Of a DNA stretch of 64,000 nucleotides, positions 12,315 through 57,121 are shown one piece after another. The first letter of the stretch is position 1; every line of letters begins with the position of its first letter. This DNA comes from a virus (lineage: Duplodnaviria; Heunggongvirae; Uroviricota; Caudoviricetes): the IMG/VR virus record IMGVR_UViG_2675903313_000009; one strand, written 5' to 3'. The notes under the pieces are model-generated. The model saw nothing but the letters and a program-made list of their open reading frames with translations, made no database searches and was not told the DNA's origin. The position numbers were made by a program, and so were the translations under genes.

Positions 12315-12383
12315 TAGGTAAGTACACACCTACAACAAAAGGGTGAAATGTGATATAAATCCGCCATCCCGATTTGACTTTTC

Positions 12384-12719: not shown

Positions 12720-12732
12720 CAGGAGATCAAGG

Positions 12733-13425
12733 ATGAAGACTCCGAGAGGCATTCGTAATAATAACCCCGGTAATCTTGATAAAGGATCACCGTGGCAAGG
12801 TCTGGTTGCGAATCCAGACGAACCGCGCTTTTGCACGTTTAAAGACCCTGTTTGGGGGATTCGTGCGCTGGCGGTGACTCTAATTACCTACCACGATAAA
12901 CGTCGCGCAAAAGACGGCTCAAGTATCGATACCATTCGTGAAGTTATTGAACGCTGGGCACCGCCGAATGAAAACAATACTGACGCCTACATTAATGAGG
13001 TGTCTAAAGCCGTTGGTGTAACCGCAGACATGATCATCGATCTGCATGATTACGACATCCTTCGACCTTTGGTTGAGGCAATCATTCGCCACGAGAATGG
13101 CCGAGGCCCGCTAAAAACGCTGAACACCTGGTATGCGGCAGAAGTTATTGAGGAAGGTCTGCGTCGAGCTGGCGTTGTTAAGCCGGTGAAAACCGTGAAG
13201 GCTGTTCCTGTAACTAAAGAAACCGCAGGCGCAACTGTTACAGCAGGTATTGGTCTGGCGCAGCTGGCCGATGTTATGCCGCAGGTTTCCGCTGCTATGG
13301 ATAAAGCACAAGGTCATATCTCTAGCGGGGATACAGTACGCATCATCTTCGGTATTGCCACTATTGTTGTGGCAGGATTCATTGCCTGGTCGCAGGTAAG
13401 AAAACACCAGAAAGGGATGGTCTAA
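12733..13425 (+). CDS. Putative endolysin / cell-wall hydrolase with C-terminal membrane helix
   Basis: ATG at 12733 preceded by AGGAG; conserved-looking N-terminal RGIRNNNPGNL block; assignment rests mainly on position between holin and spanin candidates. Confidence 0.4.
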   Translation: MKTPRGIRNNNPGNLDKGSPWQGLVANPDEPRFCTFKDPVWGIRALAVTLITYHDKRRAKDGSSIDTIREVIERWAPPNENNTDAYINEVSKAVGVTADMIIDLHDYDILRPLVEAIIRHENGRGPLKTLNTWYAAEVIEEGLRRAGVVKPVKTVKAVPVTKETAGATVTAGIGLAQLADVMPQVSAAMDKAQGHISSGDTVRIIFGIATIVVAGFIAWSQVRKHQKGMV

Positions 13426-19389: not shown

Positions 19390-20730
19390 ATGACCGAACT
19401 TTGCCATACAGGACGCGGGCTGTCCGAAGAGTTTGATGAAGATTTCCAGAACAGACTGACGGCATATTTTTGTCGTGATCACGAGTTTCTTACTCGTGCG
19501 GGAGATCTGGTTGTGCCTAGCCAATTTGCCAATGCGGCCAATGCCATATTGGTTAATATGGTTTCGGGCTATTACCGTATGTACAAGAGCGCGCCTTCTT
19601 CATCTGCGATTCTGGATATGCTTAAGCGCGCGAAACGCGATAAGACCATCCGTGAGGAACTCTTCCCGGATGTTGTTGCTGCGTTTAAGCGCATCCTTGC
19701 AGAAAAATTGTCTGATACCACGTACATGGTTGACCAGGTATCCACATTCGCAAAAAGTGTAGCGTTTGATGATGCTCTGATTAAAGCTGCTGAACTGAAA
19801 GAGAAGGGCGACTTTCAGGGGGCGATGGCAATCATGGCCAAGGTTCAGCAGATAGGCTCGAACGAAGCGACCGGAATCTATGACTACTACACCTCCGCAA
19901 GTGAGCGATTGAAAGCGCGTGAATATGAGGCTTCAGAGGAGTATGTGCCAAACAGCATTACAACTGGACTCCCTCTGCTCGATAGGTTGCTGTACCAAAA
20001 AGGCTGGGCGAAGCGTGAAATGGTGCTCTTCATGGGGTTCGCTAAATCCGGCAAATCGACCGCAATGGGTGAGTTTTCCATAAACGCAACGCTTGCTGGC
20101 TACAATGTTCTGTATCTCTCGCTGGAGGTTCACACCACCATTTTATCCGACCGTTTTGATGCAAGATTGTCGGAGACAGAAATGTCCAAGCTGGTGGAAC
20201 GGCGCGATGAGGTTCATCGTAAGTTGGCAGAGTTGGGAGCCACGAAGGGGATTGGTAGTTTGTGGGTGGTTGAGCGTCCGTCAGGAAGTATGTCACCGGC
20301 AGATCTGGACCGTATGCTTAACAGCATGAAAGCCAACGGCATGGTGCCTGACATGGTTGTTGTCGACTACGCAGATTTGATGCGTGCCAGTTATGACCTT
20401 CGTGATGATCGCGCCAACATTCGTAGTATCTACACCGATTTACGTGCTCTTTATGACAAGCATAACGTTGCTGGGATTACGGCATCGCAGACAAACCGTG
20501 AAGGTGGCGCGTCAGAAGTTGCCACAATGATGCACGCTGCCGACAACATCGAAAAAGTACGTATTGCTGACCTGGTAATAACGATCAACAAAACCGAAGA
20601 AGAAGAAGCGAAAGGAGAGGCTCGTCTCTACTTTGCTGGTTCACGTAACCAGCAGGGAGGGATCAGCATTCGCGTTAAACAAAACCTCGAACAAATGCGC
20701 TTCATTGAGCGAATCTTAGACGTTACCTAA
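19390..20730 (+). CDS. Replicative DNA helicase (DnaB family, RecA-like core)
   Basis: Walker A GFAKSGKST; 446 aa; conserved leader AAAGGAAAGCACATG upstream. Confidence 0.7.
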   Translation: MTELCHTGRGLSEEFDEDFQNRLTAYFCRDHEFLTRAGDLVVPSQFANAANAILVNMVSGYYRMYKSAPSSSAILDMLKRAKRDKTIREELFPDVVAAFKRILAEKLSDTTYMVDQVSTFAKSVAFDDALIKAAELKEKGDFQGAMAIMAKVQQIGSNEATGIYDYYTSASERLKAREYEASEEYVPNSITTGLPLLDRLLYQKGWAKREMVLFMGFAKSGKSTAMGEFSINATLAGYNVLYLSLEVHTTILSDRFDARLSETEMSKLVERRDEVHRKLAELGATKGIGSLWVVERPSGSMSPADLDRMLNSMKANGMVPDMVVVDYADLMRASYDLRDDRANIRSIYTDLRALYDKHNVAGITASQTNREGGASEVATMMHAADNIEKVRIADLVITINKTEEEEAKGEARLYFAGSRNQQGGISIRVKQNLEQMRFIERILDVT

Positions 20731-20811
20731 AAAATAAGCGTGGAGAACACCTCCACGCTTGATTCATTGGTGAAACAACTTTTCTTTTGCCAAACCACAA
20801 AAGAAAAACAC

Positions 20812-21993
20812 ATGAACCTTTATATTATATCAACATTTAGGTTGGTCACAATATTGCCTATTAAAAGTGGAATTATCGTGAGCGAGCTGAAAGAGCTAAT
20901 TACCGAATTAGATTTTGAACAATGGTTGGACACTGAAGGTATCGTTTATCGACGTGGAGGCGTGAGTGCTCGCGGTCGTGAAGTGAATATCAAGGAGTGT
21001 CCGGTATGTGGCAGCTCCAACTGGAAGGTATATTTCAATCTGACCAGTGGCGTCGGCAAATGCTTTGCTGGTGATCATCCCGAAGAGATTCAGTTCAATA
21101 AGCTGATCTTCCTCAAGCACTACAGCGGTAAATCACGACGACAGTTCGAGGAATATGTGCAGAACGCGCTGATCTCACAAGGATGGGCGCCGAAGAAGGA
21201 AGAGGTCGTGCTGGCCAGCAAGGTTGAACTCGAAGGGCCAGTAGCTCTCCCTCGACATTACGAACTCCCCATTGACGGTCGTCTTCCTGATTATCTGGTG
21301 GAGCGCCATATCTCCCCGGATCTGGCCAAATACTTTGATCTGCGTTACTGCGTCGAAGGCAAGCACGCATACGTCGATCCGTACACAGACCAGGTCAAAG
21401 GGCAGGTGTTTGATATGCGCATCCTGATACCGGTTTACGATCTGGATGGCGTGATGAAGACCTTCCAGGGGCGTGACATTACCGGTGCAGCAGAACGTCG
21501 CTACCTCTTTCCTATGCAGCTTCCAGCTTCAGGTAGGTTTCTCTACAACGGCCATAATGCAGTCGGCAAACAGACTGTAGTTGTCTGTGAGGGGGCGTTC
21601 GATGTTATGGGGGTCAAACGAGCTATTTTTGACGAAGAAACATTACGTGATTACGTGGAACCAATAGGAACGTTCGGGATGCATCTATCTGGTAACACCA
21701 CTCAGGATGCAGAAGATCAGCTGGGCGCGTTCCTGACGCTCAAGGCGCGTGGGCTACGTAATGTGATTATGATGTGGGATAGTGAAAAGCAGGCTATACG
21801 CAACACTATGGCCGCAGCCAGGCGACTGAGCAGTATTGGTCTTAATGTGAAAATTGCATGTTTGGGCGAGGAAGGACTCGACCCCGGCGATGCGACCCCG
21901 GGGCAGATTATCAAAGCCTACTATTGCGCAAAACCTTACTCACGACAGCTTGAACTTTTAAGCAAGGTAAAAGGCATAGCTGCATTAGTTTGA
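20812..21993 (+). CDS. DNA primase (zinc-binding plus TOPRIM)
   Basis: ATG at 20812 follows the conserved AAAAGAAAAACACATG leader; CPVCGSS..GKCF zinc motif and VVCEGAFDVMG TOPRIM-like block. Track ORF 20740 starts inside a hairpin after the helicase gene. Confidence 0.65.
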   Translation: MNLYIISTFRLVTILPIKSGIIVSELKELITELDFEQWLDTEGIVYRRGGVSARGREVNIKECPVCGSSNWKVYFNLTSGVGKCFAGDHPEEIQFNKLIFLKHYSGKSRRQFEEYVQNALISQGWAPKKEEVVLASKVELEGPVALPRHYELPIDGRLPDYLVERHISPDLAKYFDLRYCVEGKHAYVDPYTDQVKGQVFDMRILIPVYDLDGVMKTFQGRDITGAAERRYLFPMQLPASGRFLYNGHNAVGKQTVVVCEGAFDVMGVKRAIFDEETLRDYVEPIGTFGMHLSGNTTQDAEDQLGAFLTLKARGLRNVIMMWDSEKQAIRNTMAAARRLSSIGLNVKIACLGEEGLDPGDATPGQIIKAYYCAKPYSRQLELLSKVKGIAALV

Positions 21994-23130
21994 ACCAGTA
22001 TTAGTCACATACACATTGACCGAAAATGATTTAACTTCAGTATTGAAGTTGTCAGTCATTACCGCGAGGTAGGCATTTTTGGTATCTCTGAATTGCTTCA
22101 GGATGATTTGAACGTTATCTGTGCAAACAAACGAGGTAGCCAGATTGCCTCCTTTCTCTGAAAAATCCTTCAGGAATGTGCAGTCAACTTTGCCATCATT
22201 AGCGGTGAAGGTAGCATCATCACCCTGCCAGGTAAATGTAGCGTTAACGCCCTTATCAATGGATTTAGCAATAAGTCGCTGGGTGGCGGATTTTGTTTTG
22301 GCTTTGGAAGCCGGCGCTCGATATTTGCCGCTTTCTTTCAGTTCTGCAATGTAATCGCAGCCTCTTTTTTCTCCTTTATCGCAAGCAGTCTGATAAAGGT
22401 CGGCTGCTTTTTTATAGTCCTTTTTTACACCTTCCCCATTCTCATACATAATGCCAAGATTGGTTATGGCGTCGGCGTTTCCAAGTTCCGCTGCCTTTTT
22501 ATACCACTTAACTGCTTCTGCATCATTGCGTTTAACGCCTAACCCATCATCGTATAGTATTCCTAATCCTATCATAGCTTCTGAACTGCCTTGGTCTGCC
22601 GCCTTTTTGTAATAAGTAAAAGCCTTTTTATAATTCTTTTTAACGCCTTTACCATATTGGTAATACGCCCCAAGAACTGAAGTTGCTTTAACATACCCGG
22701 CATCAGAGGCTAGTTTGAAGTATTTAATGGCGAGTGCATGATCTACTTTACCAAGCAACCCCTTTTGATAAATAGCACCAAGATTGTTGTAGGCTCTACC
22801 TTCACGAGCATCCCCCGCAAGTTTGTAGTACTCAACAGCTTTATTTAGGTCTTTATCTACACCCTCGCCAAATGTGTACATAACCCCAAGTGCATAATAT
22901 GCTACTTTGTCTCCCTTTTCTGCAGCGAGATCAATCCACTTCTTGGCCTCAACTACATCCTTATCAAAACCATTGATACCATCAAAATAATTTGTCCCTA
23001 ACTCACTTTGTGCTGCGGTATCCCCTGCGGTAGCGGCTTCTATCAGCGTTTGTTTATTGTCTGCGTTAACGAATCCAGAGCTAAAAAGCAAAGTTAATGC
23101 CAGCAACGATGAAGATTTTATGTATTTCAT
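21985..23130 (-). CDS. Secreted Sel1-repeat (TPR-like) protein
   Basis: Start at internal Met (MKYIKSSSLLALTLLFSSGFVNA signal peptide) of track ORF 21985-23175; at least seven Sel1-like units (A..YY.LG..Y..G.GV.KD...A..WYKKAA). Confidence 0.75.
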   Translation of the reverse strand: MKYIKSSSLLALTLLFSSGFVNADNKQTLIEAATAGDTAAQSELGTNYFDGINGFDKDVVEAKKWIDLAAEKGDKVAYYALGVMYTFGEGVDKDLNKAVEYYKLAGDAREGRAYNNLGAIYQKGLLGKVDHALAIKYFKLASDAGYVKATSVLGAYYQYGKGVKKNYKKAFTYYKKAADQGSSEAMIGLGILYDDGLGVKRNDAEAVKWYKKAAELGNADAITNLGIMYENGEGVKKDYKKAADLYQTACDKGEKRGCDYIAELKESGKYRAPASKAKTKSATQRLIAKSIDKGVNATFTWQGDDATFTANDGKVDCTFLKDFSEKGGNLATSFVCTDNVQIILKQFRDTKNAYLAVMTDNFNTEVKSFSVNVYVTNTGSN

Positions 23131-23363
23131 ATTTTTTGTTCTGTTGATATAGGATGAACAGTTTAGACGCGGCAAGCGTCAAGTGTGCGAAAAAGGGTAC
23201 TTAAATTTAGTTAATATGTCAGCTTTGTTGATTTAGTTTATGGTCGGTAAAGTTACTAGGAAACTAATAACCATAAGAAATAGTACGCCATTTAATTATT
23301 GTGGCACTGCTCGTGTTTTGATTAACTAATACCTGCGATAAATATAAATAAAGGGAAGCCAAC

Positions 23364-23777
23364 ATGAGCAAAAATAAGCTGATTTTAACAGGAGCTTTAT
23401 TGTCTTTGTTTGCTTTAGTGGGGTGTAAGCCTACAGACGAGAAGGCTATTGCTCTGGGCCAACAAGCAATTGCGGATGATATGAAAGATCCCACGTCGGT
23501 GATGTTTAGGAAAGATAAGTTTGTCAGGACTGATCATGACGATGGGAGTGTGACAGGCTTTGTGTGCGGAGAATTGAACGCCAAAAATGGCTTTGGTGCA
23601 TACGTGGGCTATCACTCATATGTTGTTGAACTCGAAATGAAGCCAAAGGGCATGTTTTCGAAAGGGGTGGTATACAAAATCCTATCGAAGTCGTTGGCAC
23701 CTAATGATCCTCATGACTTACAGCGTTATAAGCAGGTCTACAGAAAGATGTGCAACAGTGAGGCTGTAGCTCATTAA
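23364..23777 (+). CDS. Lipoprotein (137 aa)
   Basis: Signal peptide with lipobox (LFALVGC). Confidence 0.55.
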   Translation: MSKNKLILTGALLSLFALVGCKPTDEKAIALGQQAIADDMKDPTSVMFRKDKFVRTDHDDGSVTGFVCGELNAKNGFGAYVGYHSYVVELEMKPKGMFSKGVVYKILSKSLAPNDPHDLQRYKQVYRKMCNSEAVAH

Positions 23778-23902
23778 TGGTGAATGCCGGGCAGACTATA
23801 AGCCCGGCATCTTCGTATAGGGAACTATTGCGCCTAAAATGATAAGTAGATACATACTTAGTTTTTTGTAAGAATACTTTCATCTGTTAGCTAGGAGTTG
23901 GT

Positions 23903-28125: not shown

Positions 28126-28200
28126 GATGGTGTAGCTCAGCGGTAGAGCAGTTGGCTGTTAACCAACTGGTCGGTGGTTCGAATCCACCCACCATCGCCA
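28126..28200 (+). tRNA. tRNA-Asn (anticodon GTT)
   Basis: Hand-folded cloverleaf: acceptor GATGGTG/CACCATC, anticodon loop CTGTTAA, T-loop TTCGAAT, encoded CCA. Confidence 0.8.
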
Positions 28201-28205
28201 ATTTA

Positions 28206-28292
28206 GGGGAGTTAGTCCGTAGAGGTAGCGGTGTAGACTGTAAATCTACTGTCATGGCGACTCGGGTGGTTCGACTCCATCACTCCCCACCA
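28206..28292 (+). tRNA. tRNA-Tyr (anticodon GTA), long variable arm
   Basis: Acceptor GGGGAGT/ACTCCCC, anticodon stem-loop GTAGA-CTGTAAA-TCTAC, T-loop TTCGACT, CCA end; D-arm not fully canonical in my fold. Confidence 0.65.
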
Positions 28293-28296
28293 AATT

Positions 28297-28372
28297 GCCG
28301 GTTTAGCTCAGTTGGTAGAGCAGTCGCTTTGTAAGCGAATGGCCAGCGGTTCAAGTCCGTTAACCGGCACCA
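28297..28372 (+). tRNA. tRNA-Thr (anticodon TGT)
   Basis: Acceptor GCCGGTT/AACCGGC, D-arm AGCTCAGTTGGTAGAGC, anticodon loop TTTGTAA, T-loop TTCAAGT, CCA end. Confidence 0.8.
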
Positions 28373-28373
28373 A

Positions 28374-28462
28374 CACAACAGGTAAGAGCATTGGGCGAAT
28401 CGGCGATACTGACCCACAAGGCCGTAAATCGATAGAGTCAGACCAGTGCTCTTACCGTTGTG
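28374..28462. repeat. Long inverted repeat (about 20-bp arms CACAACAGGTAAGAGCATTGG / CCAGTGCTCTTACCGTTGTG)
   Basis: Between tRNA-Thr and tRNA-Ser; one bulge and one mismatch. Confidence 0.6.
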
Positions 28463-28562
28463 ATGAATGCACAGGCTGATGTGCCGCAACTACAGTAGTG
28501 CGCGCTTTGCGGGGCTTGCTACAACCCTGTGTCGGAGTTCAGTACCGACCATCACAATAGCT

Positions 28563-28649
28563 GGAGAGTAGGGAGCATGGTGCTCAAGCGGTCTTGAAAA
28601 CCGTTCCATTGTGCAAACGATGATGGTTCGATTCCATTACTCTCCGCCA
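28563..28649 (+). tRNA. tRNA-Ser (anticodon TGA), long variable arm
   Basis: Acceptor GGAGAGT/ACTCTCC, anticodon stem-loop GCGGT-CTTGAAA-ACCGT, T-loop TTCGATT, CCA end. Confidence 0.7.
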
Positions 28650-28841: not shown

Positions 28842-30104
28842 TTACTTTACATAGTCGCCCAGTTTTAATATTTCGCGCTTATATTCTTTAACCATGCTAC
28901 TGGATTCAGTATAAATTCGATTTAAAAGATTATCGCTATCTTTATTCTCATTTATCTTAATGAGTGATAATTTAAATTCATAGTCATCAAATGCCACAAT
29001 CAAATGGTGGCCTGGGATTATATCTTCGTCACTCTTGAAGTATATATCTTCAAGTATGTAATCTAGTTGATTAGATTTTCTTTTCTCGATGTAATCTTCA
29101 GCCATAGCTATTACATCATTCCTGTCATTTAACCTGTTTTTTTCGGAAGGCACATCTTCGTAATGTTGCACGATTGAACAACCAATAAGGCGTGGGATGT
29201 AAACGTCAAAATGAGTAACTCTATCATTCGCGGTTTTAAGTTGTTCCTCAAAGTAGTTTCTTACATGTAAAGGCAACTTCTCAAAGTAATCATTAATTAT
29301 AGGAGAACAAGGAGTTTTATAATTCATAAGAACCGACGGTACGAGCTGTGGGCGTCGAAACATCCAGTCCCTTTTAACGTCCGATGGAACATAATAACTT
29401 TTAATGATATTATCAAAATAATTTATCATTCGAGATTTGAATATTTTATTGAATCTAAGGTTTATGAATGTATCCAGATAAGGCATATTTGAATAAGCAT
29501 CATCAAAAAATATTTCATCATTGAAAAAATCATATTTATTCAATAAACAACACAGTTTTTCCGAATTAATATGTTCACAATAATCGATTTTTAATCCAAA
29601 GATAGCAATGATCAACTTCATCTGAGGTGGGATTTTAAAAATTAATTGTGATACATACGCTCTTTTTTCCTTGAGACATTCCCCATCAATATAAAATGAA
29701 CTATCCACATACTCAAATATATTAATAATATGCTTCACATACTGTATTACCTCATGCTGTTTTACCAATGGGTAATAGAGTCTATGTAACTCATCGCTGT
29801 TTAAATTAATTTTGTGTTTATCGATAATTTGTTTTGCAAGAAGACATAACGCATCATGTTGATTTAATAAGGAATCAAACCATTGTTTAAATGCACTCTT
29901 TCGCATTTCGAACAATGATTCAGTTGTTAATTGAAGGGCTGAAAAAGCTGCTTTTGCACTTTTTCTCGCTTCGTAGGCATTCCATGCTGTTGCTATAAAA
30001 GCAAATGCTGTAGCCAATGTTCCAACAGTTTGACCATTTAAAACAACCCAATCCCAAAAAATAACGGTGAGCAGTAGTATAATAATGAAAATTAAAAAAG
30101 GCAT
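28842..30104 (-). CDS. Hypothetical membrane-anchored protein (420 aa), strongly AT-rich
   Basis: Only long ORF in a markedly AT-rich segment; N-terminal TM helix (MPFLIFIIILLLTVIFWDWVV...); Ile/Lys/Asn/Tyr/Phe-rich; no motif recognised. Confidence 0.6.
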   Translation of the reverse strand: MPFLIFIIILLLTVIFWDWVVLNGQTVGTLATAFAFIATAWNAYEARKSAKAAFSALQLTTESLFEMRKSAFKQWFDSLLNQHDALCLLAKQIIDKHKINLNSDELHRLYYPLVKQHEVIQYVKHIINIFEYVDSSFYIDGECLKEKRAYVSQLIFKIPPQMKLIIAIFGLKIDYCEHINSEKLCCLLNKYDFFNDEIFFDDAYSNMPYLDTFINLRFNKIFKSRMINYFDNIIKSYYVPSDVKRDWMFRRPQLVPSVLMNYKTPCSPIINDYFEKLPLHVRNYFEEQLKTANDRVTHFDVYIPRLIGCSIVQHYEDVPSEKNRLNDRNDVIAMAEDYIEKRKSNQLDYILEDIYFKSDEDIIPGHHLIVAFDDYEFKLSLIKINENKDSDNLLNRIYTESSSMVKEYKREILKLGDYVK

Positions 30105-30278
30105 GTATGTATTTCACTCTACTAACTATAAATTATTAGGCTAATGTTAACCAAACAATGCCTTAATTAATAGATTGATCGAGGCTTTAATAGCTTTATA
30201 ATGCAGACTGCAAAGATAAGTATGCACATACCTATCTTCTTTGTAAGTAAAGTTGCATATCAATTCTATGAGGTAACA

Positions 30279-30524
30279 ATGACGATCACTATCTACGGAC
30301 GAGATAACTGCTCATACTGCAAACGTGCGGTCGAGCTGGCGAAGCAACTAAAGGGACATGGCTACGGTGATTATGAGTACATCGACATCACCACTGCCGG
30401 TATCAACAAGGAAAAACTAAGTGAAATTGTTGGTAAACCGGTAGAGACTATCCCCCAGGTGCTGATCGATGGCCAGCCGATTGGCGGATACACAGAACTG
30501 GCTGCATACGTCAGCACCCTCTGA
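30279..30524 (+). CDS. Glutaredoxin (Grx1-like)
   Basis: Internal Met of track ORF 30201-30524; CSYC redox motif and GKPVETIPQVLIDGQPIGGYTELAAYV closely resemble E. coli glutaredoxin 1 from memory. Confidence 0.8.
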   Translation: MTITIYGRDNCSYCKRAVELAKQLKGHGYGDYEYIDITTAGINKEKLSEIVGKPVETIPQVLIDGQPIGGYTELAAYVSTL

Positions 30525-30734: not shown

Positions 30735-31838
30735 ATGAAAAATAGCTTTGACAGAGCACGCGCTGCGGAGAACACCTCAAAAGAGGCGATTGAGTATCTC
30801 GAAAGAGCATCTCAAATGCAGGCCGTTATGATCTCGCAGGTCAGCAATGACATGAGATTCTCGGACGCATTCATGTTATTCACTCGCTTATCTCTGCTGA
30901 TAACAAGACGTCGGCCAGAGATCGCTGTTCATTGTATTTTGATACATGTTTTGCCGCACATTGCCGATGTAAAAGTAAGTGACATTAATAGGTTCATGGT
31001 GAACCAACTGGTCAACCCACTAATACTGGATGGCAAAATTGTTATGGGCCGCCGCGTTTTCTCTCTGATGAAGCAGTTCCTTAGCTGGTGCGCCTTCCAG
31101 GGGATGATAGACGTGTCACCGTTAAACGATATGTCACTAAACAAAGTTGCCGGTGGCGCAAAGCCCACACCTCGCGAGCGGAAGCTGACCGACGCAGAGG
31201 TATGGGTGTTCTGGAATATATGGGACTACTTCAATGTGTGCGCTGGTACAAAATGGGCGGCCAGGCTGTGTCTTGTATCCGCAAGACGACCTGACGAAGT
31301 ACTGCGGGCTAAAAAAAGTGAGTTCAATCTTAAGCGTGGGGTTTGGAATCAAGGCAAGAGGAACAAATCTGCCCGTGAGCATTCGCTGCCTTTAAGCACA
31401 TTAATGCGCACATGTATTGAAGAGTTGTTCGAATACGGTAAAGGCAGCCAGTGGCTCGTGCCTTCGAATAAAAAAATCGGGAAAGACCTTCCTATGTCTA
31501 AAGTGGCAATAGCCCAGGCATTACGTCGTATCCTGGAACGACCAGAACTGATGGAGCTTGAGCCATTTACACCCCGAGACTTGCGCCGTACTGCGCGTAG
31601 TTACTTCCCAGCATTAGGCATAAGCCAGGAGGTATCACGCAAAATCATGAACCACAGTCTTGAGGGGATAGATCGAGTCTACGACCGGCACGATTATATG
31701 GACGAGATGCGAGACGCCTTAGAAAGTTTCTCGACGTACATCGCATCAATCGTAGAGCAACCGGATTTAGACGAAATTGACCACAAATTCAAGGGAGATC
31801 GTCTATCAACAGAGCTTATTCGTGTAAATTTTTCATAG
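30735..31838 (+). CDS. Tyrosine recombinase / integrase-like protein
   Basis: C-terminal half has catalytic-type blocks (..ARRPDEVL.., ..TPRDLRRTARSY.., ..NHSLEGIDRVYDRHDY..); the usual His of the H-x-x-R box appears as Arg; start uncertain. Confidence 0.6.
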   Translation: MKNSFDRARAAENTSKEAIEYLERASQMQAVMISQVSNDMRFSDAFMLFTRLSLLITRRRPEIAVHCILIHVLPHIADVKVSDINRFMVNQLVNPLILDGKIVMGRRVFSLMKQFLSWCAFQGMIDVSPLNDMSLNKVAGGAKPTPRERKLTDAEVWVFWNIWDYFNVCAGTKWAARLCLVSARRPDEVLRAKKSEFNLKRGVWNQGKRNKSAREHSLPLSTLMRTCIEELFEYGKGSQWLVPSNKKIGKDLPMSKVAIAQALRRILERPELMELEPFTPRDLRRTARSYFPALGISQEVSRKIMNHSLEGIDRVYDRHDYMDEMRDALESFSTYIASIVEQPDLDEIDHKFKGDRLSTELIRVNFS

Positions 31839-32219
31839 AGACTTTATGGCCTCAACAACCTTTTGTGATGCGCCTTTCTCTTTACCGAATCGCTCGTTAT
31901 ATGCAGCAAGAACCTGTTTTTCGTCCTCGTTAAGAGGAGCGGTGCCTTCTTTGTATAAAAATGCTGCGAGTTCAGGTTGGCGTTCTTCCAGCACCATCAT
32001 CATAAGACGACTTGGCTCAATACCCAGCGCCAGCGCCAACGGACGAACCTTATCGATAGGCAAAGGAATTTTGCCACTTTTAATTAAAGAAAGGTTGTTG
32101 GCATTTTTATAACCAATAAGTCTGGCTATTTGGGCCTGACTCATAGGTGAGGATTCAATCAGCCCTGCGATAAAAGCAGCATAGCGACTTTCTATAAATT
32201 CAATCTTGTTGTCAGACAT
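31833..32219 (-). CDS. HTH (XRE-family-like) transcriptional regulator, candidate repressor
   Basis: HTH-like segment MSQAQIARLIGYKNANNLSLIKSGK; divergent from a promoter region containing GGTAAGTGCTTACC palindromes. Confidence 0.65.
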   Translation of the reverse strand: MSDNKIEFIESRYAAFIAGLIESSPMSQAQIARLIGYKNANNLSLIKSGKIPLPIDKVRPLALALGIEPSRLMMMVLEERQPELAAFLYKEGTAPLNEDEKQVLAAYNERFGKEKGASQKVVEAIKSL

Positions 32220-32469
32220 TGTTACAACCTTTGCGCGTTCAATTCTCTCTGGTAAGTGCTTACCGATATTACATCAAAGGTTAGGGTTGTAAAGCTATTA
32301 TCATTTTTTCGATAGGCACTTAAAAGACCGGTTAAAGGCCATTGCACGGAGAAAAATTAGCCCAAAACAGGTAAGAAAATTAACTTGCATATGATATGAA
32401 TGTATTCAGTATTGATATAAATTTTAGTAGTATTCCTTACCATAGTATAAGTTAGAATGGATTGATTGA

Positions 32470-32682
32470 ATGAACACCACTATTTCCAGCCTAATCGCTC
32501 TTGAGATCGGACACGTACAGAAATTAGCTGATGAGTGTGTAGCTGACATCCTCACCGATCTACCGAATGAGCAGATTCAGGTTGGTGTGAATGACACAAC
32601 TGGCTTTATATTCGAACTTAACAACAAACGCTTCACGCTTCTCAATATCGGCTCCGGGTCTTTAGCCGTCAGAATCTGTTAA
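32470..32682 (+). CDS. Small hypothetical protein (70 aa)
   Basis: Track ORF divergent from the HTH gene; weak support. Confidence 0.3.
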   Translation: MNTTISSLIALEIGHVQKLADECVADILTDLPNEQIQVGVNDTTGFIFELNNKRFTLLNIGSGSLAVRIC

Positions 32683-32780
32683 CCCCTCTTCTCCCTGCGC
32701 GAATGGCTTAGTTCCCTGTTCGCGCAGTGCTACATTAAACACACTAGTAAATAATTTGTTTTCATAACAAAGGATTAGCC

Positions 32781-34889
32781 ATGTCTAAAAAACGTTCCAT
32801 CAAAGAGGTTCAGGACTTCCGTGACAGTGTAAAACGAGTAGTCGCTCTCCTTTCAGGTAAAAACATCCCTGTTGCAGAACGAGGGGACGACGCTTATGTA
32901 CGCTATAACGATGATGGAGAGCCAATTCTCGTAAACATCCCATCAATCCCGGATAACGCAACACCGGCATTGATGAATGCTGTGCGCGGATTTCTCGATC
33001 ATGAGGTTGCTCACATTTTGTTTACCGATATTCGTGTGTCCAACAAAATGAGAGAAAAAGGACGCGTTCCTTCCTGGTCGCTATGGAATGCCTTAGAAGA
33101 CGTGTTCATCGAGCGAAAAATGGGTCAGGTCTTTAACGGAACAAGACGTAATCTGATGGCAACTCAGCGCCTTATAATCGAAAAAGTCTTTAAACCAAAG
33201 GCTTCAGAGGCTATTGCTTATTGTGGCAAAGATCAGCGCGCGCTTTTTCTAAACTTCTTTCTCTGTCCGGTTGTAAGAGCCTGGGATGGCCAAGCACCGT
33301 TCGTAGATTTCATGGATGAACATTGGCCTGTCATTGAGAAACCAATTTCATTATTAAAAGAACATGGTATCGATGTGGCCGTGCGTAACATGTCTTGCAC
33401 CGAGGATTGTGTAAAGGTGGCTGCGACCATAGCTAAGATCCTCAAAGACACTGAAAGTGAAAGCAAAGGTAAGGAGTCAGCTCCGGGAAAAACTTCCGAT
33501 CCTTCAGACGCTGACCAGACGGATGCCTCTGGAGAAAACAATGAAGACAACGAAGATCATGAGACTCCCTCAGTGTTAGATAATTACAAATCTATCAAAT
33601 CAGAATCACATAGTAAGTACAAACATGATAATAACGACAGTGATGATTCAGATAATTCTGAATCATCAGAAACAATATTCGATGATACAGAAAATGATAA
33701 AGAGGTATCAGATTCTGATGCTTCTGATAACGCGGCGTCAGAATCATTAACCGCTGACCACGAAAAAAGAAAAACGACAGAAGACGGCTCTTCAGATATC
33801 CCAACTCCGTCAAAAATGAGTCTGGAAGAGGCTTTAGAGGAGTTGGATAGCATGGAAGATGAAGTCGGAGGCATGACAGAAGATGCGCTATCCGAAACGA
33901 TTAAAAGCGAGTTAACAGAAAGCTCGAAAAGCGAATACAGGCCATACAATCGCTCATACGACTTCATCGGCTCGATTGATCAGGCAGAAGCCCATATCAA
34001 ACGGCTTATTAAAACATTCTCCGATATTGATTTGGGAGGATATCCAATCAGCCGCTATCGCATCGTTCCTGAAGGCAACCAGCTCTTCGACAAATATATT
34101 GAAAAGCATCTTTCGTCAGGTGTTTCGTCGACGCTGGCAAAAGACCTGGAGCGAGCAATAGCAAGCAGAAACAGAGTTCAGTTTATACCGGGCCAGCGTC
34201 GGGGGCGCATTCATGGTTCTAGTATCTACAGATTAGCAATGAATGATGCTCGCGTGTTTCGTAAAAAAGAAGAATCTAAAGCCGTTAACGCCTGTGTTCA
34301 ACAAGTGATTGATTTATCAGGTTCAATGAGTGGTATAACGATTAAACTGGCTCTTGCAAGTGCATATACCATCGCCGATGCCCTTGATCGAATAAATGTT
34401 CCCAACATTATCACCGGCTTCACTACATTTGGTAGTCATATGGCGGCAGGAGAACTTAAGGCTGTCAAGTATGAGTTCTCTCGCTTTGAATCTTTAATGC
34501 TACCTATCATCAAAAATTGGAATGAAAAGGTAAATTCTCGCGAAGTTCGCTCACGTATGGGGTGCGTAGGCTACACATTCCCACTTCTTAATAACGTGGA
34601 TGGTGAAAGCATAGCCAGCCTTGCATCGTTATTTTCCGGTCGCATGGAGGACAGGAAGATCATGCTTGTTCTGAGTGATGGCGCGCCGTGGGCTGTTGGG
34701 AGAGGTTTTGACGCTCATTTGCGTTCAGTTGCGAAGCAAATTGAAACGCAGACTGATATTGATTTGATGGCAATTGGCATCATGACTGACGCACCGGAGA
34801 GATTTTACTCAAATCATGCCCTGGTAACGAGCGTTGATAGTCTTGGTTCATCTGTAGTTACTGAACTATCTCGTATCATTTTAAAGTGA
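32781..34889 (+). CDS. CobT-like von Willebrand factor A domain protein with acidic Ser/Asp-rich linker
   Basis: MIDAS-type motif DLSGSMSG in the C-terminal half; long disordered acidic region (DSDDSDNSESSE...); partner AAA+ gene follows. Confidence 0.65.
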   Translation: MSKKRSIKEVQDFRDSVKRVVALLSGKNIPVAERGDDAYVRYNDDGEPILVNIPSIPDNATPALMNAVRGFLDHEVAHILFTDIRVSNKMREKGRVPSWSLWNALEDVFIERKMGQVFNGTRRNLMATQRLIIEKVFKPKASEAIAYCGKDQRALFLNFFLCPVVRAWDGQAPFVDFMDEHWPVIEKPISLLKEHGIDVAVRNMSCTEDCVKVAATIAKILKDTESESKGKESAPGKTSDPSDADQTDASGENNEDNEDHETPSVLDNYKSIKSESHSKYKHDNNDSDDSDNSESSETIFDDTENDKEVSDSDASDNAASESLTADHEKRKTTEDGSSDIPTPSKMSLEEALEELDSMEDEVGGMTEDALSETIKSELTESSKSEYRPYNRSYDFIGSIDQAEAHIKRLIKTFSDIDLGGYPISRYRIVPEGNQLFDKYIEKHLSSGVSSTLAKDLERAIASRNRVQFIPGQRRGRIHGSSIYRLAMNDARVFRKKEESKAVNACVQQVIDLSGSMSGITIKLALASAYTIADALDRINVPNIITGFTTFGSHMAAGELKAVKYEFSRFESLMLPIIKNWNEKVNSREVRSRMGCVGYTFPLLNNVDGESIASLASLFSGRMEDRKIMLVLSDGAPWAVGRGFDAHLRSVAKQIETQTDIDLMAIGIMTDAPERFYSNHALVTSVDSLGSSVVTELSRIILK

Positions 34890-34984
34890 ACAAAACAGCC
34901 TTAACGATAAGTAACCACTTACGATATATAATGATATATTTATATAAGAAGTTGAACGCTCATTAGAGAACAAAGGAAAAACGC

Positions 34985-36220
34985 ATGACGACTACTGCAC
35001 TGCAAAATGAAAAAAATCCTTCTGATTACCTTGTTTGCAAGTGGTGCGGCAAATCATTTCACTATTTTAAGTCCCATGTAGCCAATGGTAATTGCGAGGG
35101 CATTCCTGAGTCAGTAAAAGATGCCGATCCTGACACCGTACTGAAAATGTACACAACGCAGTTTCCAGATGAACCAACGCTATCGAAAAAGGCACTTGAT
35201 GCAATTCAAGCTAAACGTGCCGAGCAAAAAAGCGAAATGGCCAAATCTTCTGGCTTGACCAGTAGCCCTGGCTACACAGGCACAGTTGAGTACAAGACAG
35301 ATCTGGTCGCAGCTCACGAACTGCTAAACGTAACGGTGGAAGAACTCGGAACAAAACGTGGGACGCCGCTCATGGTTAGCGTCAACGTCAATACGCCGTA
35401 TCCAGAGTTCGTTCCCGAAGTGAAGAAAGGCTACGTATATGGCGACTTCGAACTGATCAAAGATATTTTCATGATGCTTGAACTTGGCATACCTGGCTAT
35501 TTGTGGGGTCATGCAGGAACAGGCAAATCGTCATTGCCTACACAGCTATGTGCTTTGCTCAATCGTCCGTTGATCCGTGCCCAACATACAGCATCAATGG
35601 AAGAGGCACATGTTACGGGGCAAATTCTGGCGCGTGATGGCTCTACGTATTTCGAACCTGGCTTGCTTGCGCTCGCAATGAAGCATGGCTGGGTTTACCT
35701 CGCGGATGAATACGACTTTGCGTTTCCACAAATTCTTGGCGTGTATCAGCCAGTGCTGGAAGGTGAAGCGTTGGTCATCAAAGAGGCAACTCCAGAATGG
35801 CGTCGCATTACTCCGCATGAACGGTTTGCTTTCATTGGCACTGGCAACACGAACGGATCTGGTGATGAAACCGGCTTGTACCAGGGTACAAACATCCAGA
35901 ACGCCGCGAACTTTTCGCGTTTTGGCATCGTTTCGAATGTGAAATACATGAGCAAAGACGCAGAGATCAACATGTTGACAAATGCAGGCATCGTGGATGA
36001 ATACGCTGAAAAGATGGTTAAGTTTGCCGGTATCGTTCGCGATGGATACGAAGAACACCTCATTAGTCAGCCAATTGGCCCTCGTGAACTTTTGTTGTCG
36101 GCCAAGATTGGAATGATGCGAGGCGACTTTGTGACAGGTATTGAGCGTTCTTTCATTAACAAACTCCCTTCAGCTTCTGCACAAGCGGCTCGTGAAGTTG
36201 TTCAAAAAATATTTGGTTAA
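34985..36220 (+). CDS. CobS/MoxR-like AAA+ ATPase
   Basis: Walker A GHAGTGKSSL, Walker B-like VYLADEYD; N-terminal Cys/His cluster (CKWCGKSF..H..C). Confidence 0.7.
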   Translation: MTTTALQNEKNPSDYLVCKWCGKSFHYFKSHVANGNCEGIPESVKDADPDTVLKMYTTQFPDEPTLSKKALDAIQAKRAEQKSEMAKSSGLTSSPGYTGTVEYKTDLVAAHELLNVTVEELGTKRGTPLMVSVNVNTPYPEFVPEVKKGYVYGDFELIKDIFMMLELGIPGYLWGHAGTGKSSLPTQLCALLNRPLIRAQHTASMEEAHVTGQILARDGSTYFEPGLLALAMKHGWVYLADEYDFAFPQILGVYQPVLEGEALVIKEATPEWRRITPHERFAFIGTGNTNGSGDETGLYQGTNIQNAANFSRFGIVSNVKYMSKDAEINMLTNAGIVDEYAEKMVKFAGIVRDGYEEHLISQPIGPRELLLSAKIGMMRGDFVTGIERSFINKLPSASAQAAREVVQKIFG

Positions 36221-36222
36221 TC

Positions 36223-36426
36223 GTGCGTAAAGGATGTTTCGGCTCTCTTATCGCTGCTTCTGAAACTGGTAAGGCTTGTCTGGTGTGTCCAGACAAGCCC
36301 GATTGTCACCAATCAGCAAAAGAAGTTGCGATTTCGATGCATGGGAAGTTCGTAGGCTTCCCCAATGACAAAATCAAAAAAACCAGAAAGGTAAAAACAC
36401 ATGAAGGCACTGATGGTTCGAACTGA
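36223..36426 (+). CDS. Small Cys-rich protein (67 aa)
   Basis: CLVCPDKPDCH motif; overlaps the polymerase start; weak. Confidence 0.3.
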   Translation: MRKGCFGSLIAASETGKACLVCPDKPDCHQSAKEVAISMHGKFVGFPNDKIKKTRKVKTHEGTDGSN

Positions 36427-39400
36427 CTTCTCACTTGGGGAGTCGGCTCTAAAAGCAGAAAACGCGGTGAAGATTGCCAGAGAAGCTGGCTACACCGCTG
36501 TAATTTCAGCAGATAGCATGAATATTGCGAGCGTTATTCCACTACAACGTGCCGCTGGTGACGACATGGCGGTTATTTGTGGTGTGAAACTAAACATTGT
36601 TGATGATCCCACATACGAGCACCGGGCTAAACTTGCTAAAGAATCTATGAGATGTATGGAATCATTAGAGCGGGGACGTAACTACTCGTTTACCGCTCTA
36701 ATTAAAAATGAGCAAGGATATCGCGACATCTGCGAACTAATGACGGTGGCCAACACACGAGAACAGTTCTACTTTGTACCGCGTCTCTCGCTCGAAAAGT
36801 TGGTTTCTACATATGCCAAAGGCAACATCATCCTGCTCACTTCCGACATCGGTAGCGTGTTCCAACGCAACGATTTTGCAAAAATCATAAGCTCACTGAT
36901 TACAGCGGGCGGGAAAGACAACTTCTATAGTGTGGTTTATCCGCACCCTACCCCATTCTACGACCAGATTAACGTCCGAGCGATGAAAGTCGCCAGCGCA
37001 CTGAAAATAGAGCCAGTAGCGTTCTATCCCGCTTATTACGAATCGATCGACGATGCAGACATTAAAGACATTGCGCACATGGTTACGAACAACATAAAAA
37101 TCGACCAGCCGCATCGTCTGCGTATCCCCCACCAGCGAGATAACGCCATCAATGGTCGTCGCCATCTCCTTGAGGCGCTTAAAGCCTTCTCCGTTCGCAT
37201 GGATGTGCCGGTAACAGCTGCAATGGCCTCAACAACGCAGGACTCCATTATCGATGCCTGCACATGGCGCTGGCATGAATTGCCACCAGCACTGCCCAAG
37301 ATGGCAGACGACGAACCTGCAACGCTGATGAAACTGGCTGTTGCAGGGCTGCGTAAACGTCTTACCACAAAAGAGTTTGGATACACACCACCTGCTTCTG
37401 AGAACAGGGTTTATGTTGAGCGGCTAAAGTACGAAATGGACACGCTGACTCGCCTGGGATTCTGTGGTTACTTCCTGATGGTACGCGATCTGATGAATCA
37501 CAGCCGTGAAACTGGCATTCCTGTCGGGCCTGGTCGTGGTTCCTCTGCCGGTTCTCTGGTGGCGTGGTGCATAGGCATAACCAACGTCGACCCAATCCGT
37601 CACGGTCTTCTGTTTGAGCGTTTCATCAACCCTGAGCGTCTCGACTTGCCGGATGCGGACTTGGACTTCAGCCAGGCACGTCGCCATGAGGTGATCGAGT
37701 ATCTGAATGAACGCTACGGCGAAGATTACGTTGCAGGCATTCCGAACTTCACCTACCTGGGCGCAGCCTCTGCACTACGTGACACCGCTCGTATTTATGG
37801 TGTGGAGTCCGCAGATATGGCGGTATCAAAAGAACTGAAGAACGTCGAGGATGATAGCCTTCCATTGGAAGAGCTGCGCGAACAACTGGCAAGTCTCGAC
37901 AAATACGCAACAAAATATCCTGATGCATTCAATGCAGCCTGCAAGTTACAAAGCCTTATGCGTGGCTTTGGTAGACATGCGGCAGGGATGATCGTAGCAG
38001 GTGTTCCTCTAACAGAACGTACACCGGTTGAGCGCCGTGGTGACGCGCGTTGTATCGCATTTGACAAGCGTTACTGCGAGGCTATGGGCCTAATTAAGCT
38101 GGACGTACTTGGTCTGGCAACTCTCGATTTGCTCGATAGTGCAAAACGCTACATAAAAGAGAACACAGGTGAAGATATCAATCTTGATGCCATTTCTCTT
38201 GAAGATCGCAAGGTGCTGGATGGTTTTGCTGCTGGGTACACTCAAGGTGTTTTCCAGCTTGAATCAGGCCCAATGCGCAAGCTGCTTAAAGATTTAGGTG
38301 GTGGAATTGAGCCAATGAGCTTTAAAACGGTTGTTGCTACGACTGCGCTCTTCCGGCCGGGGCCAATTCAGTCAGGCATGTTGGATGACTATGTTTCTGT
38401 AGCCAAAGGCTTTATGACGCCGGAATCATTACACCCCGTTCTTGATGAACTTACCGCAGAAACAAATGGCGTGATTCTCTATCAGGAACAGACGATGAAC
38501 GCGACTCGATTGCTTGCTGGCTTCACAATGGCTGAAGCTGACGGCGTTCGTAAAGCGATCGGTAAAAAAGACATGGAAAAAATGAAGAGCATGGGCGAGA
38601 AGTTCATCGTTCAGGCTCAAGCTGGCTGGATAGACGTTGAGCTGGAAGATGGCACTACACAGCGCATTCACCGTGCGGAACATTTTAAATGCGAAGACGG
38701 AACTCTGAAAACTGTCGAAGAGGCACTTGAGTACGGCGCAAAACTACCTATAAACGCAGTACGCGTTACAGCGTCACATCCAGGGCTATCAGAGATGAAA
38801 GCGAAGGAGATCTGGACCGCATTCGAAAAGAATGGTGCCTACCAGTTCAACAAATCACACTCTGTTGCTTACTCCTTAATCAGTTATCAATCTATGTGGT
38901 TGAAAACTCATTATCCCGCGGAGTTCTTCGCTGCTGCTCTCACTATTCTTGGCGAAGATAAACACCAGGGGCTGGTTAAAGATGCGCTGACCTATGGTAT
39001 TCGCGTATTGCCACCAGACGTTAACGTGTCATCTAACCGAATCGAGATCCGCACGCTTGAAGATGGCAGCCAGGTGCTGTATGCGCCCTTCTCTGCTGTG
39101 AAAGGGTGTTCTGAGAATGGCTGCCAAGCCATCATGAGAGCGCGAGAAAAAGTTGGCGGCAAATTCGAGTCACTGGCGCAATTCGAAGAAGCTGTCGAGA
39201 AACGTGCCTGTAATAGTCGAGTGCGCGAATCGCTGCAAAAAGTAGGGGCGTTTGCATCCATCGAGCCAGGCAGTCTGCCAGCAACTGATCCAGAGCGCCT
39301 ACGCGACCAGGCTGAATTGATGGGAAACCTTGTCATAGACGCAGTTAAAGCCTCACGTCCGTTTGAGATGAACCCCAAACGTTCGGCTGAAATTAACGTA

Positions 39401-39919
39401 CTCATGACGCGGATGGCGGCTGAAATGGGCTTAGGTGATGAACTAATCCGCCCCAGCATTGGTATTAAGCCGAAAATCATGATCATTCTGGACAATGCGA
39501 ACGGCAATGATGCTCGAACCGGTTACTTTATGGAGAACGGATACGACGACTTTAAGGCCAAGCTATTGACGGCTGGAGATTTACGCATGGGCGATCTCTA
39601 TGTCACAGGTGTTTGCAAGAAGGTTAAAGACAAAGAAAAAGACTACACCAAAGACGAGATCGGCCAGTTCACCGACTTTATGCGTGAAGAGATCAATCTG
39701 GTGCGTCCGACCTATGTGCTGACGTGTGGCAGCCGGGCAACTTCATTGTTTAACAACAAAAACAAGCCATCCGATTTGGTCGGCAGGAAGGAGTATCTTC
39801 CAGACCTTGACGTTACTGTCTTTTACGGGTTTAACCCCAACATTCTTTACTTCAGACCTGAAGAGGGAGAACGACTAGAAGCGATATTAGCCGACGTAGC
39901 AGAAACCATTAAGACGTGA
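36401..39919 (+). CDS. DNA polymerase III alpha-like replicative polymerase (DnaE family, N-terminal PHP domain)
   Basis: 1172 aa; N-terminus MKALMVRTDFSLGESALKAENAVKIAREAGYTAV is PHP-like; blocks GPGRGSSAGSLVAWCIGIT and FERFINPER..LPDADLDF are typical of the pol III alpha core. Confidence 0.85.
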   Translation: MKALMVRTDFSLGESALKAENAVKIAREAGYTAVISADSMNIASVIPLQRAAGDDMAVICGVKLNIVDDPTYEHRAKLAKESMRCMESLERGRNYSFTALIKNEQGYRDICELMTVANTREQFYFVPRLSLEKLVSTYAKGNIILLTSDIGSVFQRNDFAKIISSLITAGGKDNFYSVVYPHPTPFYDQINVRAMKVASALKIEPVAFYPAYYESIDDADIKDIAHMVTNNIKIDQPHRLRIPHQRDNAINGRRHLLEALKAFSVRMDVPVTAAMASTTQDSIIDACTWRWHELPPALPKMADDEPATLMKLAVAGLRKRLTTKEFGYTPPASENRVYVERLKYEMDTLTRLGFCGYFLMVRDLMNHSRETGIPVGPGRGSSAGSLVAWCIGITNVDPIRHGLLFERFINPERLDLPDADLDFSQARRHEVIEYLNERYGEDYVAGIPNFTYLGAASALRDTARIYGVESADMAVSKELKNVEDDSLPLEELREQLASLDKYATKYPDAFNAACKLQSLMRGFGRHAAGMIVAGVPLTERTPVERRGDARCIAFDKRYCEAMGLIKLDVLGLATLDLLDSAKRYIKENTGEDINLDAISLEDRKVLDGFAAGYTQGVFQLESGPMRKLLKDLGGGIEPMSFKTVVATTALFRPGPIQSGMLDDYVSVAKGFMTPESLHPVLDELTAETNGVILYQEQTMNATRLLAGFTMAEADGVRKAIGKKDMEKMKSMGEKFIVQAQAGWIDVELEDGTTQRIHRAEHFKCEDGTLKTVEEALEYGAKLPINAVRVTASHPGLSEMKAKEIWTAFEKNGAYQFNKSHSVAYSLISYQSMWLKTHYPAEFFAAALTILGEDKHQGLVKDALTYGIRVLPPDVNVSSNRIEIRTLEDGSQVLYAPFSAVKGCSENGCQAIMRAREKVGGKFESLAQFEEAVEKRACNSRVRESLQKVGAFASIEPGSLPATDPERLRDQAELMGNLVIDAVKASRPFEMNPKRSAEINVLMTRMAAEMGLGDELIRPSIGIKPKIMIILDNANGNDARTGYFMENGYDDFKAKLLTAGDLRMGDLYVTGVCKKVKDKEKDYTKDEIGQFTDFMREEINLVRPTYVLTCGSRATSLFNNKNKPSDLVGRKEYLPDLDVTVFYGFNPNILYFRPEEGERLEAILADVAETIKT

Positions 39920-40044
39920 TCCCATAAACATGGCCTCTATGGCCATGTTTTCTCTTATCCCCTCATATCCCCTATCCTCGAACTCCTTGCCTTATCATCA
40001 CAATGATATAATCAATATAAGATGATAAGTAAAAAGGAAAGCAC

Positions 40045-57015: not shown

Positions 57016-57020
57016 CATAT

Positions 57021-57050
57021 GGTGGGGGATATCCCCACCTTCTCTTTGAT
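57021..57050 (+). terminator. Hairpin/terminator after nrdA
   Basis: GGTGGGGGA-TAT-CCCCACC hairpin followed by a T-rich tract. Confidence 0.5.
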
Positions 57051-57121
57051 TTGTAAGCCTTGTTTAAACACATAAGATAACAACTTGTTTAAACGCACCA
57101 AAAAAGAAAAAGGAAAAACAC

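Follow-up and report, generated by a model that had tools for sequence, protein, structure and literature searches.

A CobS/CobT-related gene pair with an intact HExxH motif in the dnaE operon of an SSU5-like phage-plasmid

The window analysed here is a stretch of 64,000 nucleotides from a tailed virus (Caudoviricetes; IMG/VR record IMGVR_UViG_2675903313_000009). Upstream of a DnaE-like polymerase gene it carries the genes of a CobT-like protein with a von Willebrand factor A (VWA) domain, of a CobS-like AAA+ ATPase and of a small Cys-rich protein (Table 1). All three had been noticed in an initial annotation made from the sequence alone, and the list of open reading frames (ORFs) agrees with it exactly, every one of them lying on the + strand. 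The order on that strand is orf70, cobT-like, cobS-like, orf67 and dnaE. No + strand terminator-like site is found between cobT and dnaE, the first one being located directly after dnaE. The genes, their family matches and the acidic segment are not chance patterns.

A 4.1-kb stretch of the window matches an E. coli O169:H41 plasmid at 100% identity; with Escherichia phage Cyrano the identity is 98.5%, with Salmonella phage SSU5 ~75%. In PLSDB, 465 plasmids match the stretch (Escherichia, Enterobacter, Yersinia, Salmonella, others). The window is thus an SSU5-like phage-plasmid. In public records the pair is named «cobalamin biosynthesis protein CobT», «AAA family ATPase» or «porphyrin biosynthesis protein», and the NCBI name of the protein cluster, which contains 3307 sequences, is «CobT-related». 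In phage Cyrano the two genes (20382-23821) go under «dimethylbenzimidazole phosphoribosyltransferase» and «cobalamin synthetase». Both of the latter names are an annotation error, i.e., a confusion with the unrelated Salmonella enzymes CobT and CobS, to whose nomenclature they belong. Already on record are the genes with their family assignment and the viral cobST cluster, as is the combination of a MoxR ATPase with a vWA protein that bears an N-terminal metallopeptidase. What is added here is: (i) an HExxH motif which is intact in the proteins of mobile elements, versus a dead site in genuine CobT; (ii) a recurrent placement in replication clusters across replicase types; (iii) a conserved Cys-rich partner gene located 5' of dnaE.

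Table 1. Features of the cobT-cobS-dnaE operon and of its surroundings (positions in the window)
Feature	Position	Strand	Basis or remark
Helix-turn-helix (HTH) repressor-like gene	31833..32219	-	Weak HTH_19/HTH_37 matches; Cyrano annotation «putative repressor»; divergent from the operon
70-aa ORF, first gene of the operon	32470..32682	+	phrog_2627, E 4.9e-40; SSU5-like loci only
CobT-like adaptor, 702 aa	32781..34889	+	Pfam CobT + CobT_C; phrog_1576, E 6e-301
N-domain, residues 1-228, predicted zincin, M48-like fold	32781..33464	+	
HEVAH zinc-peptidase motif (H74, E75, H78)	33000..33014	+	Invariant in alignment
Acidic Ser/Asp/Glu-rich disordered linker, residues ~222-386	33444..33938	+	Composition
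Shaft-equivalent segment, residues ~459-503	34155..34289	+	Alignment to 9uka_G
VWA domain	34254..34883	+	CobT_C, E 3.3e-82
MIDAS (adhesion site dependent on metal ions), D511-x-S513-x-S515	34311-34325	+	With T548/T549 and D633; complete
CobS-like AAA+ ATPase, 411 aa	34985..36220	+	AAA_5; phrog_249, E 1e-106
Cys/His knuckle, C18-x2-C21-x4-H26-x4-H31...C37	35036..35095	+	N-terminal extension of the ATPase
67-aa Cys-rich ORF, GTG start	36223..36426	+	phrog_6337, E 3e-45; phrog_3616, E 4e-5
DnaE-like polymerase, 1172 aa	36401..39919	+	Pfam and NCBIfam matches
Terminator-like hairpin, 10-bp stem, end of the operon	39926..39950	+	Sole + strand terminator-like site in 32076-39950

The 702-aa protein matches Pfam CobT (PF06213) over residues 9-294 (E 1.5e-26, 94 bits vs. 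a gathering score of 26.1) and the CobT_C VWA family (PF11775) over residues 492-701 (275.8 bits vs. a gathering score of 21). Its closest solved relative is the cobaltochelatase CobT 9uka_G (E 2e-13, aligned residues 295-697), and the whole CobT architecture is present, i.e., N-domain, acidic linker, shaft and VWA/MIDAS. The 411-aa protein matches Pfam AAA_5 (E 2.1e-15) and falls in the MoxR/chelatase clade. Its closest solved relative is the cobaltochelatase CobS 9ujv_A (E 1e-25, residues 142-411), with midasin, CbbQ and NorQ scoring behind in the PDB comparison (E 1e-11 to 2e-3). Since cobaltochelatase CobS and CobT come before midasin, CbbQ and NorQ, ATPase and adaptor are assigned by their sequences to the CobS/CobT branch and not to generic MoxR. 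The initial call of a CobT-like VWA protein next to a CobS-like AAA+ ATPase is thereby confirmed by Pfam and by the PDB profile comparison: the profile searches that had been proposed in order to choose between CobS/CobT and MoxR/VWA favour the former, and the families are not unrelated ones.

The functional positions of both proteins are conserved. In the ATPase these are the Walker A motif GHAGTGKS (residues 175-182, nt 35507-35530), D241/E242 (Walker B) and R312 (Arg finger). In the CobT-like protein the MIDAS residues are conserved at >=90% in the family, and E457, R458, G471, G475, F493 and others are conserved in or next to the shaft-equivalent segment. The linker contains 31% of Asp plus Glu and 27% of Ser plus Thr, for a net charge of ~-36; the extremely acidic Ser/Asp-rich segment noted at first is thus real in terms of composition. 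It had been taken as a hint of a special role, and this part does not hold: the linker is net-negative in 128 of 128 family representatives (median -56) and likewise in genuine CobT. The acidic linker is therefore a family trait and gives no functional clue. As a marker of special function it is ruled out, being universal across the family.

The N-domain and the Cys/His knuckle of the ATPase were both absent from the initial annotation. When residues 1-225 were searched against 1.84 billion cluster representatives (E up to 1e-3), 1120 clusters were obtained, and HExxH is present in all 139 near-full-length proteins (>=300 aa; representatives of 50%-identity clusters) among the best 150 of these. 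In an alignment of 22 sequences (30-52% identity) the invariant residues are D73, H74, E75, H78, N103, E106, D107, E111, G120 and N124; N103, E106, D107 and E111 are located on the long helix that follows the HExxH helix. The AlphaFold model of the domain (pLDDT 90.9) comprises a backing helix, beta-strands, the HExxH helix (62-81) and an NxxEDxxxE helix (98-117). Foldseek gave no match of this model in the PDB with E below 2.9, and a Pfam search as permissive as E 10 assigned the domain to no peptidase family. The zincin fold, M48-like, is predicted; the HExxH within it is intact.

Genuine CobT differs at this very place. The solved protein has SMALR where the phage protein has HExxH; SMAL[RK] occupies the position in 66 Hyphomicrobiales genomes, with HExxH in 0 of the 66. 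Judged from these sequences, the phage-type protein therefore retains a catalytic signature which genuine CobT has lost. The motif is also found in distant homologues: HEVGH in the «peptidase» of cyanophage P-RSM4, HECYH in Vibrio phage ICP2, HEAGH in a Cobavirinae phage and in Roseobacter phage CRP-810, and HEAAH in a homologue encoded by a Salmonella genomic island.

The sole sequence match of the N-domain profile in the PDB is the anti-CRISPR protein AcrIIA26 (9zq6_B, E 8e-4). Its segment «LNFVEDNFIEQ...G...N» aligns to N103, E106, D107, E111, G120 and N124 (residues ~103-124, window 33087-33152), so that E49/D50 of AcrIIA26, which are essential for blocking the PAM site of Cas9, face E106/D107. 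There is no support at the level of the fold, and the likeness is probably a coincidence.

The ATPase has an N-terminal extension of ~140 aa: the CobS alignment begins at residue 142 of the query, i.e., residue 39 of the 328 of the chain. The knuckle lies in this extension. Across 66 orthologues C18 and H26 are conserved at >=90%, C21 (otherwise Asp) and H31 at 70-90%. Neither the extension nor the 67-aa ORF has a Pfam match at E up to 10. The latter has four Cys (C5, C19, C22 and C28), starts 2 nt past the stop of cobS and overlaps the start of dnaE by 26 nt, being translationally coupled to both neighbours. The gene is genuine and conserved: every SSU5-like locus has it. In the loci examined the gene immediately 5' of dnaE is always a phrog_3616 protein, with the N-terminal motif GCFG-x13-C-x2-C-x5-C. 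This motif is common to the 67-aa ORF and to the proteins of 180-198 aa located 5' of dnaE in phages nickie, RHph_X66 and BUCTxx99; by this likeness, the 67-aa ORF is classed as a shortened version of the phrog_3616 protein. An ORF annotated as sigma-70-like is inserted between cobS and the Cys-rich protein in Rhizobium phage RHph_X66 (12734-13378 of the fetched locus). BUCTxx99 also has an ORF in this interval (12190-12897 of the fetched locus), and the SSU5-like window has none.

The pair is homologous to the CobS and CobT of cobaltochelatase, and the scores do not place it among their equivalogs: the NCBIfam CobS model (TIGR01650, PD_CobS) gives 86.6 bits vs. a cut-off of 558.55, and the CobT model (TIGR01651) 66.2 bits vs. 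759. CobN is absent among the 27 ORFs of the window of >=250 aa (the host genome was not searched), the two largest ORFs being tail proteins. Rfam detected no cobalamin riboswitch anywhere in the window, and within 31800-36500 it had no match of any kind even at E up to 1; no B12-dependent enzyme was found in the window. Class I ribonucleotide reductases are B12-independent, and the reductase of the element (54700-58264) is of this class: the gene of a large subunit with an ATP cone precedes that of a likely small subunit. The idea that B12 would serve a class II reductase thus fails. It must be added that E. coli requires ~30 heterologous genes, including cobN, cobS and cobT, for B12 synthesis, and that Salmonella uses the anaerobic route (PMC6249242). 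The pair almost certainly does something other than cobalt chelation, as the initial annotation had supposed in setting aside cobalamin synthesis.

The genomic context was compared in 78 diverse IMG/VR loci, whose CobT N-domains share 32-58% identity with the seed, and in phages nickie and RHph_X66. A first scan of viral contigs had given close SSU5 relatives only and was rerun from a distant first sequence; Xanthomonas phage JGB6 was left out, its record being fragmented by frameshifts. Most of the contigs examined are 100-120 kb long. In 71 of the 71 loci and reference phages that reach far enough downstream (32-55% identity) the order is cobT, cobS, a gap of 0.5-2.3 kb, dnaE and a uvsY-like gene on one strand, with a gp32-like gene after the uvsY-like gene where it was detected. 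In Stenotrophomonas phage BUCTxx99 the order is likewise cobT, cobS, gap, dnaE. In the T4-like cyanophage P-RSM4 the pair is located between gp46 and the genes of the gp45 sliding clamp and the gp44/62 clamp loader, and in the Zobellviridae (ICP2, a Cobavirinae phage) just upstream of the primase/helicase and of genes annotated «DNA polymerase». The pair therefore recurs in replication clusters around three kinds of replicase: DnaE-type, T4-type and that of the Zobellviridae. The linkage to the replicative polymerase, noticed at first in the window only, is stronger than was stated. Replisome assembly, one of the two roles suggested initially, is a conjecture.

The search with cobS matched 494 cultured phage records, mostly of cyanophages. 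The family is not confined to phages, since a Salmonella Typhimurium genomic island (AB571791) carries a CobS-like ATPase of 322 aa (2804-3772) and a CobT-like protein of 598 aa (9001-10797; HEAAH, DMSSS), a few genes apart and flanking ssb and bet.

Among known systems the cobaltochelatase CobNST (9ujv, 9uka) is the nearest: it provides the best sequence relatives of both proteins, its adaptor has the same order (M48-like N-domain, acidic disordered linker, shaft, VWA/MIDAS), and its ATPase is of the same AAA+ clade, with intact ATPase motifs. The phage pair differs from it in that (i) both proteins are far below the equivalog cut-offs; (ii) the element has neither a CobN partner nor a corrin pathway; (iii) HExxH stands in place of SMALR; (iv) the ATPase has the extra knuckle extension of ~140 aa; (v) the genes belong to a phage replication operon. 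RavA-ViaA, CbbQ-CbbO, NorQ-NorD, CoxD-CoxE and midasin resemble the pair in combining an AAA_5 ATPase with a MIDAS VWA adaptor acting on a protein client, and in midasin, too, a D/E-rich linker precedes the MIDAS domain. These are more distant (E 1e-11 to 2e-3 vs. 1e-25 for CobS), and no adaptor among them is reported to bear a zincin. The M48/M56 zinc metallopeptidases (Ste24, HtpX, BlaR1) also belong to the closest known systems.

The same architecture has been described in tailed viruses as a phage MoxR/vWA-metallopeptidase pair (Iyer et al. 2021, PMC7824862) and as a viral cobST cluster (Liu et al. 2021, PMC8651126). The pair of the window is of the type of Iyer et al., i.e., a MoxR-clade ATPase next to a vWA protein whose N-terminal domain has HExxH; the jumbo-phage proteins ASV44728/ASV44729 are matched by description only. 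The pair formed by the cyanophage «peptidase» and cobS is a demonstrable homologue. Virion assembly or a hijack of CobN is proposed in these two studies, whereas here the pair lies in a DnaE replication operon of an element whose enterobacterial host is CobN-less. The literature search gave no functional study of the viral pair, only hypotheses, and none on the copies of SSU5, of pHCM2 or of integrative and conjugative elements (ICE). This agrees with the initial statement that the function is not established.

We tentatively favour, at slightly less than even odds, the following reading: the pair would be a CobN-less AAA+/MIDAS/zincin machine for a protein that has to do with phage DNA replication. 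This client would be remodelled and, in most lineages, probably also cleaved. The reading is based on the CobS/CobT homology, on intact Walker A/B, MIDAS, shaft and HExxH, on a context devoid of CobN and B12, and on the placement in replication clusters. In the true enzyme the CobT shaft enters the pore of the CobS ring, CobT_N docks on the small subdomain of CobS, and CobN is gripped near the MIDAS, flanked by the two domains of CobT (preprint 10.64898/2026.07.21.739949). By analogy, the CobS-like ATPase would form a hexameric ring, the conserved segment before the VWA domain would enter its pore as a «shaft», and the CobT-like N-domain would dock on the lid of the ATPase. The client, a protein instead of a corrin, would then take the place of CobN, with the N-domain on one side of it and the MIDAS face of the VWA domain on the other. 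Because the N-domain keeps the zinc-peptidase residues lost in genuine CobT, this client would probably be cleaved or processed as well as remodelled. It would belong to the phage replication machinery or obstruct it, since, in an operon that adjoins a repressor gene and ends with a DnaE-like polymerase, no large gene precedes cobT-like and cobS-like. Candidate clients are the polymerase or the Cys-rich partner, a protein of the host's replisome or nucleoid, or one that forms a roadblock on the DNA.

Several points weigh against this reading. Ring assembly, client capture, proteolysis and client identity are all inferred. HExxH is gone in Pseudomonas phage nickie (SEISK; 8974-11058 of the fetched locus) and in BUCTxx99 (REVST; 8992-10977 of the fetched locus), with synteny retained. 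Since both phages lack HExxH and keep the cobT-cobS-dnaE order, proteolysis, although probably important, cannot be a core activity on which every lineage depends. The pair of Roseobacter phage CRP-810 is not adjacent to replication genes, the synteny of the 100-120-kb DnaE phages could be an inherited gene order and not a functional coupling, and host-takeover genes also occur in early and middle gene clusters. It may be observed that the loss in nickie and BUCTxx99 resembles the loss in genuine CobT.

A more far-reaching proposal, which we regard as speculative and quite unlikely, is that the viral CobT-like protein is the active form of a domain that is dead in the chelatases of B12 and chlorophyll synthesis. 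Together with the CobS ring it would constitute an ATP-driven, MIDAS-targeted zinc protease of the replication fork, serving at least three kinds of replicase. Such a protease might act on the replicase by processing it, or clear protein roadblocks, in a way functionally akin to Cdc48 with Wss1/SPRTN. The question matters because viral cobS is among the most cited «auxiliary metabolic genes», and virome surveys routinely count it as vitamin-B12 metabolism; moreover, SSU5-like phage-plasmids, which are common in Enterobacteriaceae from clinical and animal sources, have the pair. If a replication-linked remodeller or protease is the correct reading, many annotations are wrong and a conserved, possibly targetable replication step has gone unrecognised. 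If it is a fork protease, the viral «cobS» auxiliary metabolic gene is unrelated to vitamin B12. The function is testable in the E. coli K-12 phages that have the pair (Cyrano, PhiR41_1).

The first alternative to the favoured replication-linked machine is host takeover or counter-defence, in which the MIDAS would capture a host defence, nucleoid or replisome protein that is unfolded or cleaved early or after DNA entry. It is unlikely, albeit worth retaining: the operon is early and repressor-adjacent, a related pair is located beside ssb and bet in the Salmonella island, and an intact peptidase motif suits a destructive role. However, the family shows strong conservation and synteny, whereas anti-defence genes typically evolve fast, and HExxH is lost in two lineages. 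PADLOC gave no match for four proteins and a marginal DrmE match for the CobT-like protein (E 9e-4, 15.9 bits), its models describing defence and not anti-defence.

A chaperone or protease of virion assembly, i.e., a MoxR-vWA pair that assembles structural proteins or matures them by proteolysis, is decidedly improbable. Such a role has been proposed for jumbo phages by analogy with the tail system of Acidianus two-tailed virus (PMC7824862), on pairs of the architecture found here. In the window, however, the pair is ~20 kb away from the tail and lysis genes and in one operon with dnaE, and the position in replication clusters recurs in DnaE-type, T4-type and Zobellviridae phages.

The reading as auxiliary metabolic genes, in which phage CobS/CobT would replace or boost the chelatase motor of the host, with a host CobN or ChlH-like protein, and yield more cobalamin, is very unlikely. 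It is the usual reading of viral cobS/cobT, it agrees with the clear homology and with the database names «porphyrin/cobalamin biosynthesis», and a hijack of host CobN by viral CobST has been proposed (PMC8651126). It conflicts with the equivalog scores (66/759 and 87/559), with the lack of CobN among the window ORFs of >=250 aa and of a detected riboswitch, and with the class I reductase. E. coli has no de novo B12 synthesis and would need heterologous cobN/S/T, the Salmonella route is anaerobic, the N-domain keeps a peptidase motif absent from genuine CobT, and the genes are in replication operons, not in metabolic ones.

The 1172-aa protein is a DnaE-type polymerase, with Pfam matches to PHP, DNA_pol3_alpha, finger and HHH_6. 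The PHP domain of the phage DnaE family is devoid of the N-terminal HxH ligands, as judged from the family alignment and from the E. coli DnaE sequence. Its consensus is L-x-x-R-[ST]-[DNH]-F-S, with a conserved R7 (window 36401-36500 and orthologues), and few His, Asp or Glu residues are conserved. The first 300 aa have no relative in the PDB. Metal insertion, the other role suggested initially, is thus disfavoured for the polymerase: a metallochaperone loading metal into the PHP domain, by analogy with CoxD/CoxE and NorQ/NorD, is hardly credible, even though several MoxR-vWA pairs insert metal cofactors according to review text, NorQ and CbbQ are detectable relatives of the ATPase and the pair adjoins dnaE, given these missing ligands and the presence of the pair in T4-type and Zobellviridae clusters, whose polymerases are not annotated as PHP/DnaE-type.

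The C-terminus of the polymerase (39557-39904, residues ~1053-1168) has a domain like those of uracil-DNA glycosylase (UDG) family 4 (TIGR00758, E 2.8e-7), and the region also matches phrog_13175 and phrog_4335, both of «unknown function». The tau-binding C-terminal region of E. coli DnaE lies roughly where this UDG-like domain sits. No dnaQ-like proofreader was seen in the annotated parts of the window. In Cyrano a hicAB pair is inserted between dnaE and uvsY; the window has no hicAB there.

Upstream of the operon, four tRNA genes are located in 28126-28649 (Asn-GTT, Tyr-GTA, Thr-TGT and Ser-TGA). The last one is a marginal tRNA-Sec for Rfam (47.3 bits vs. 47) and is read as tRNA-Ser by ARAGORN. 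Between this cluster and a glutaredoxin-like gene (30201-30524) lies, in a low-GC stretch (0.39), an ORF of 420 aa (28842-30104, - strand) with a hydrophobic N-terminus and no Pfam or PADLOC match; it may be accessory cargo.

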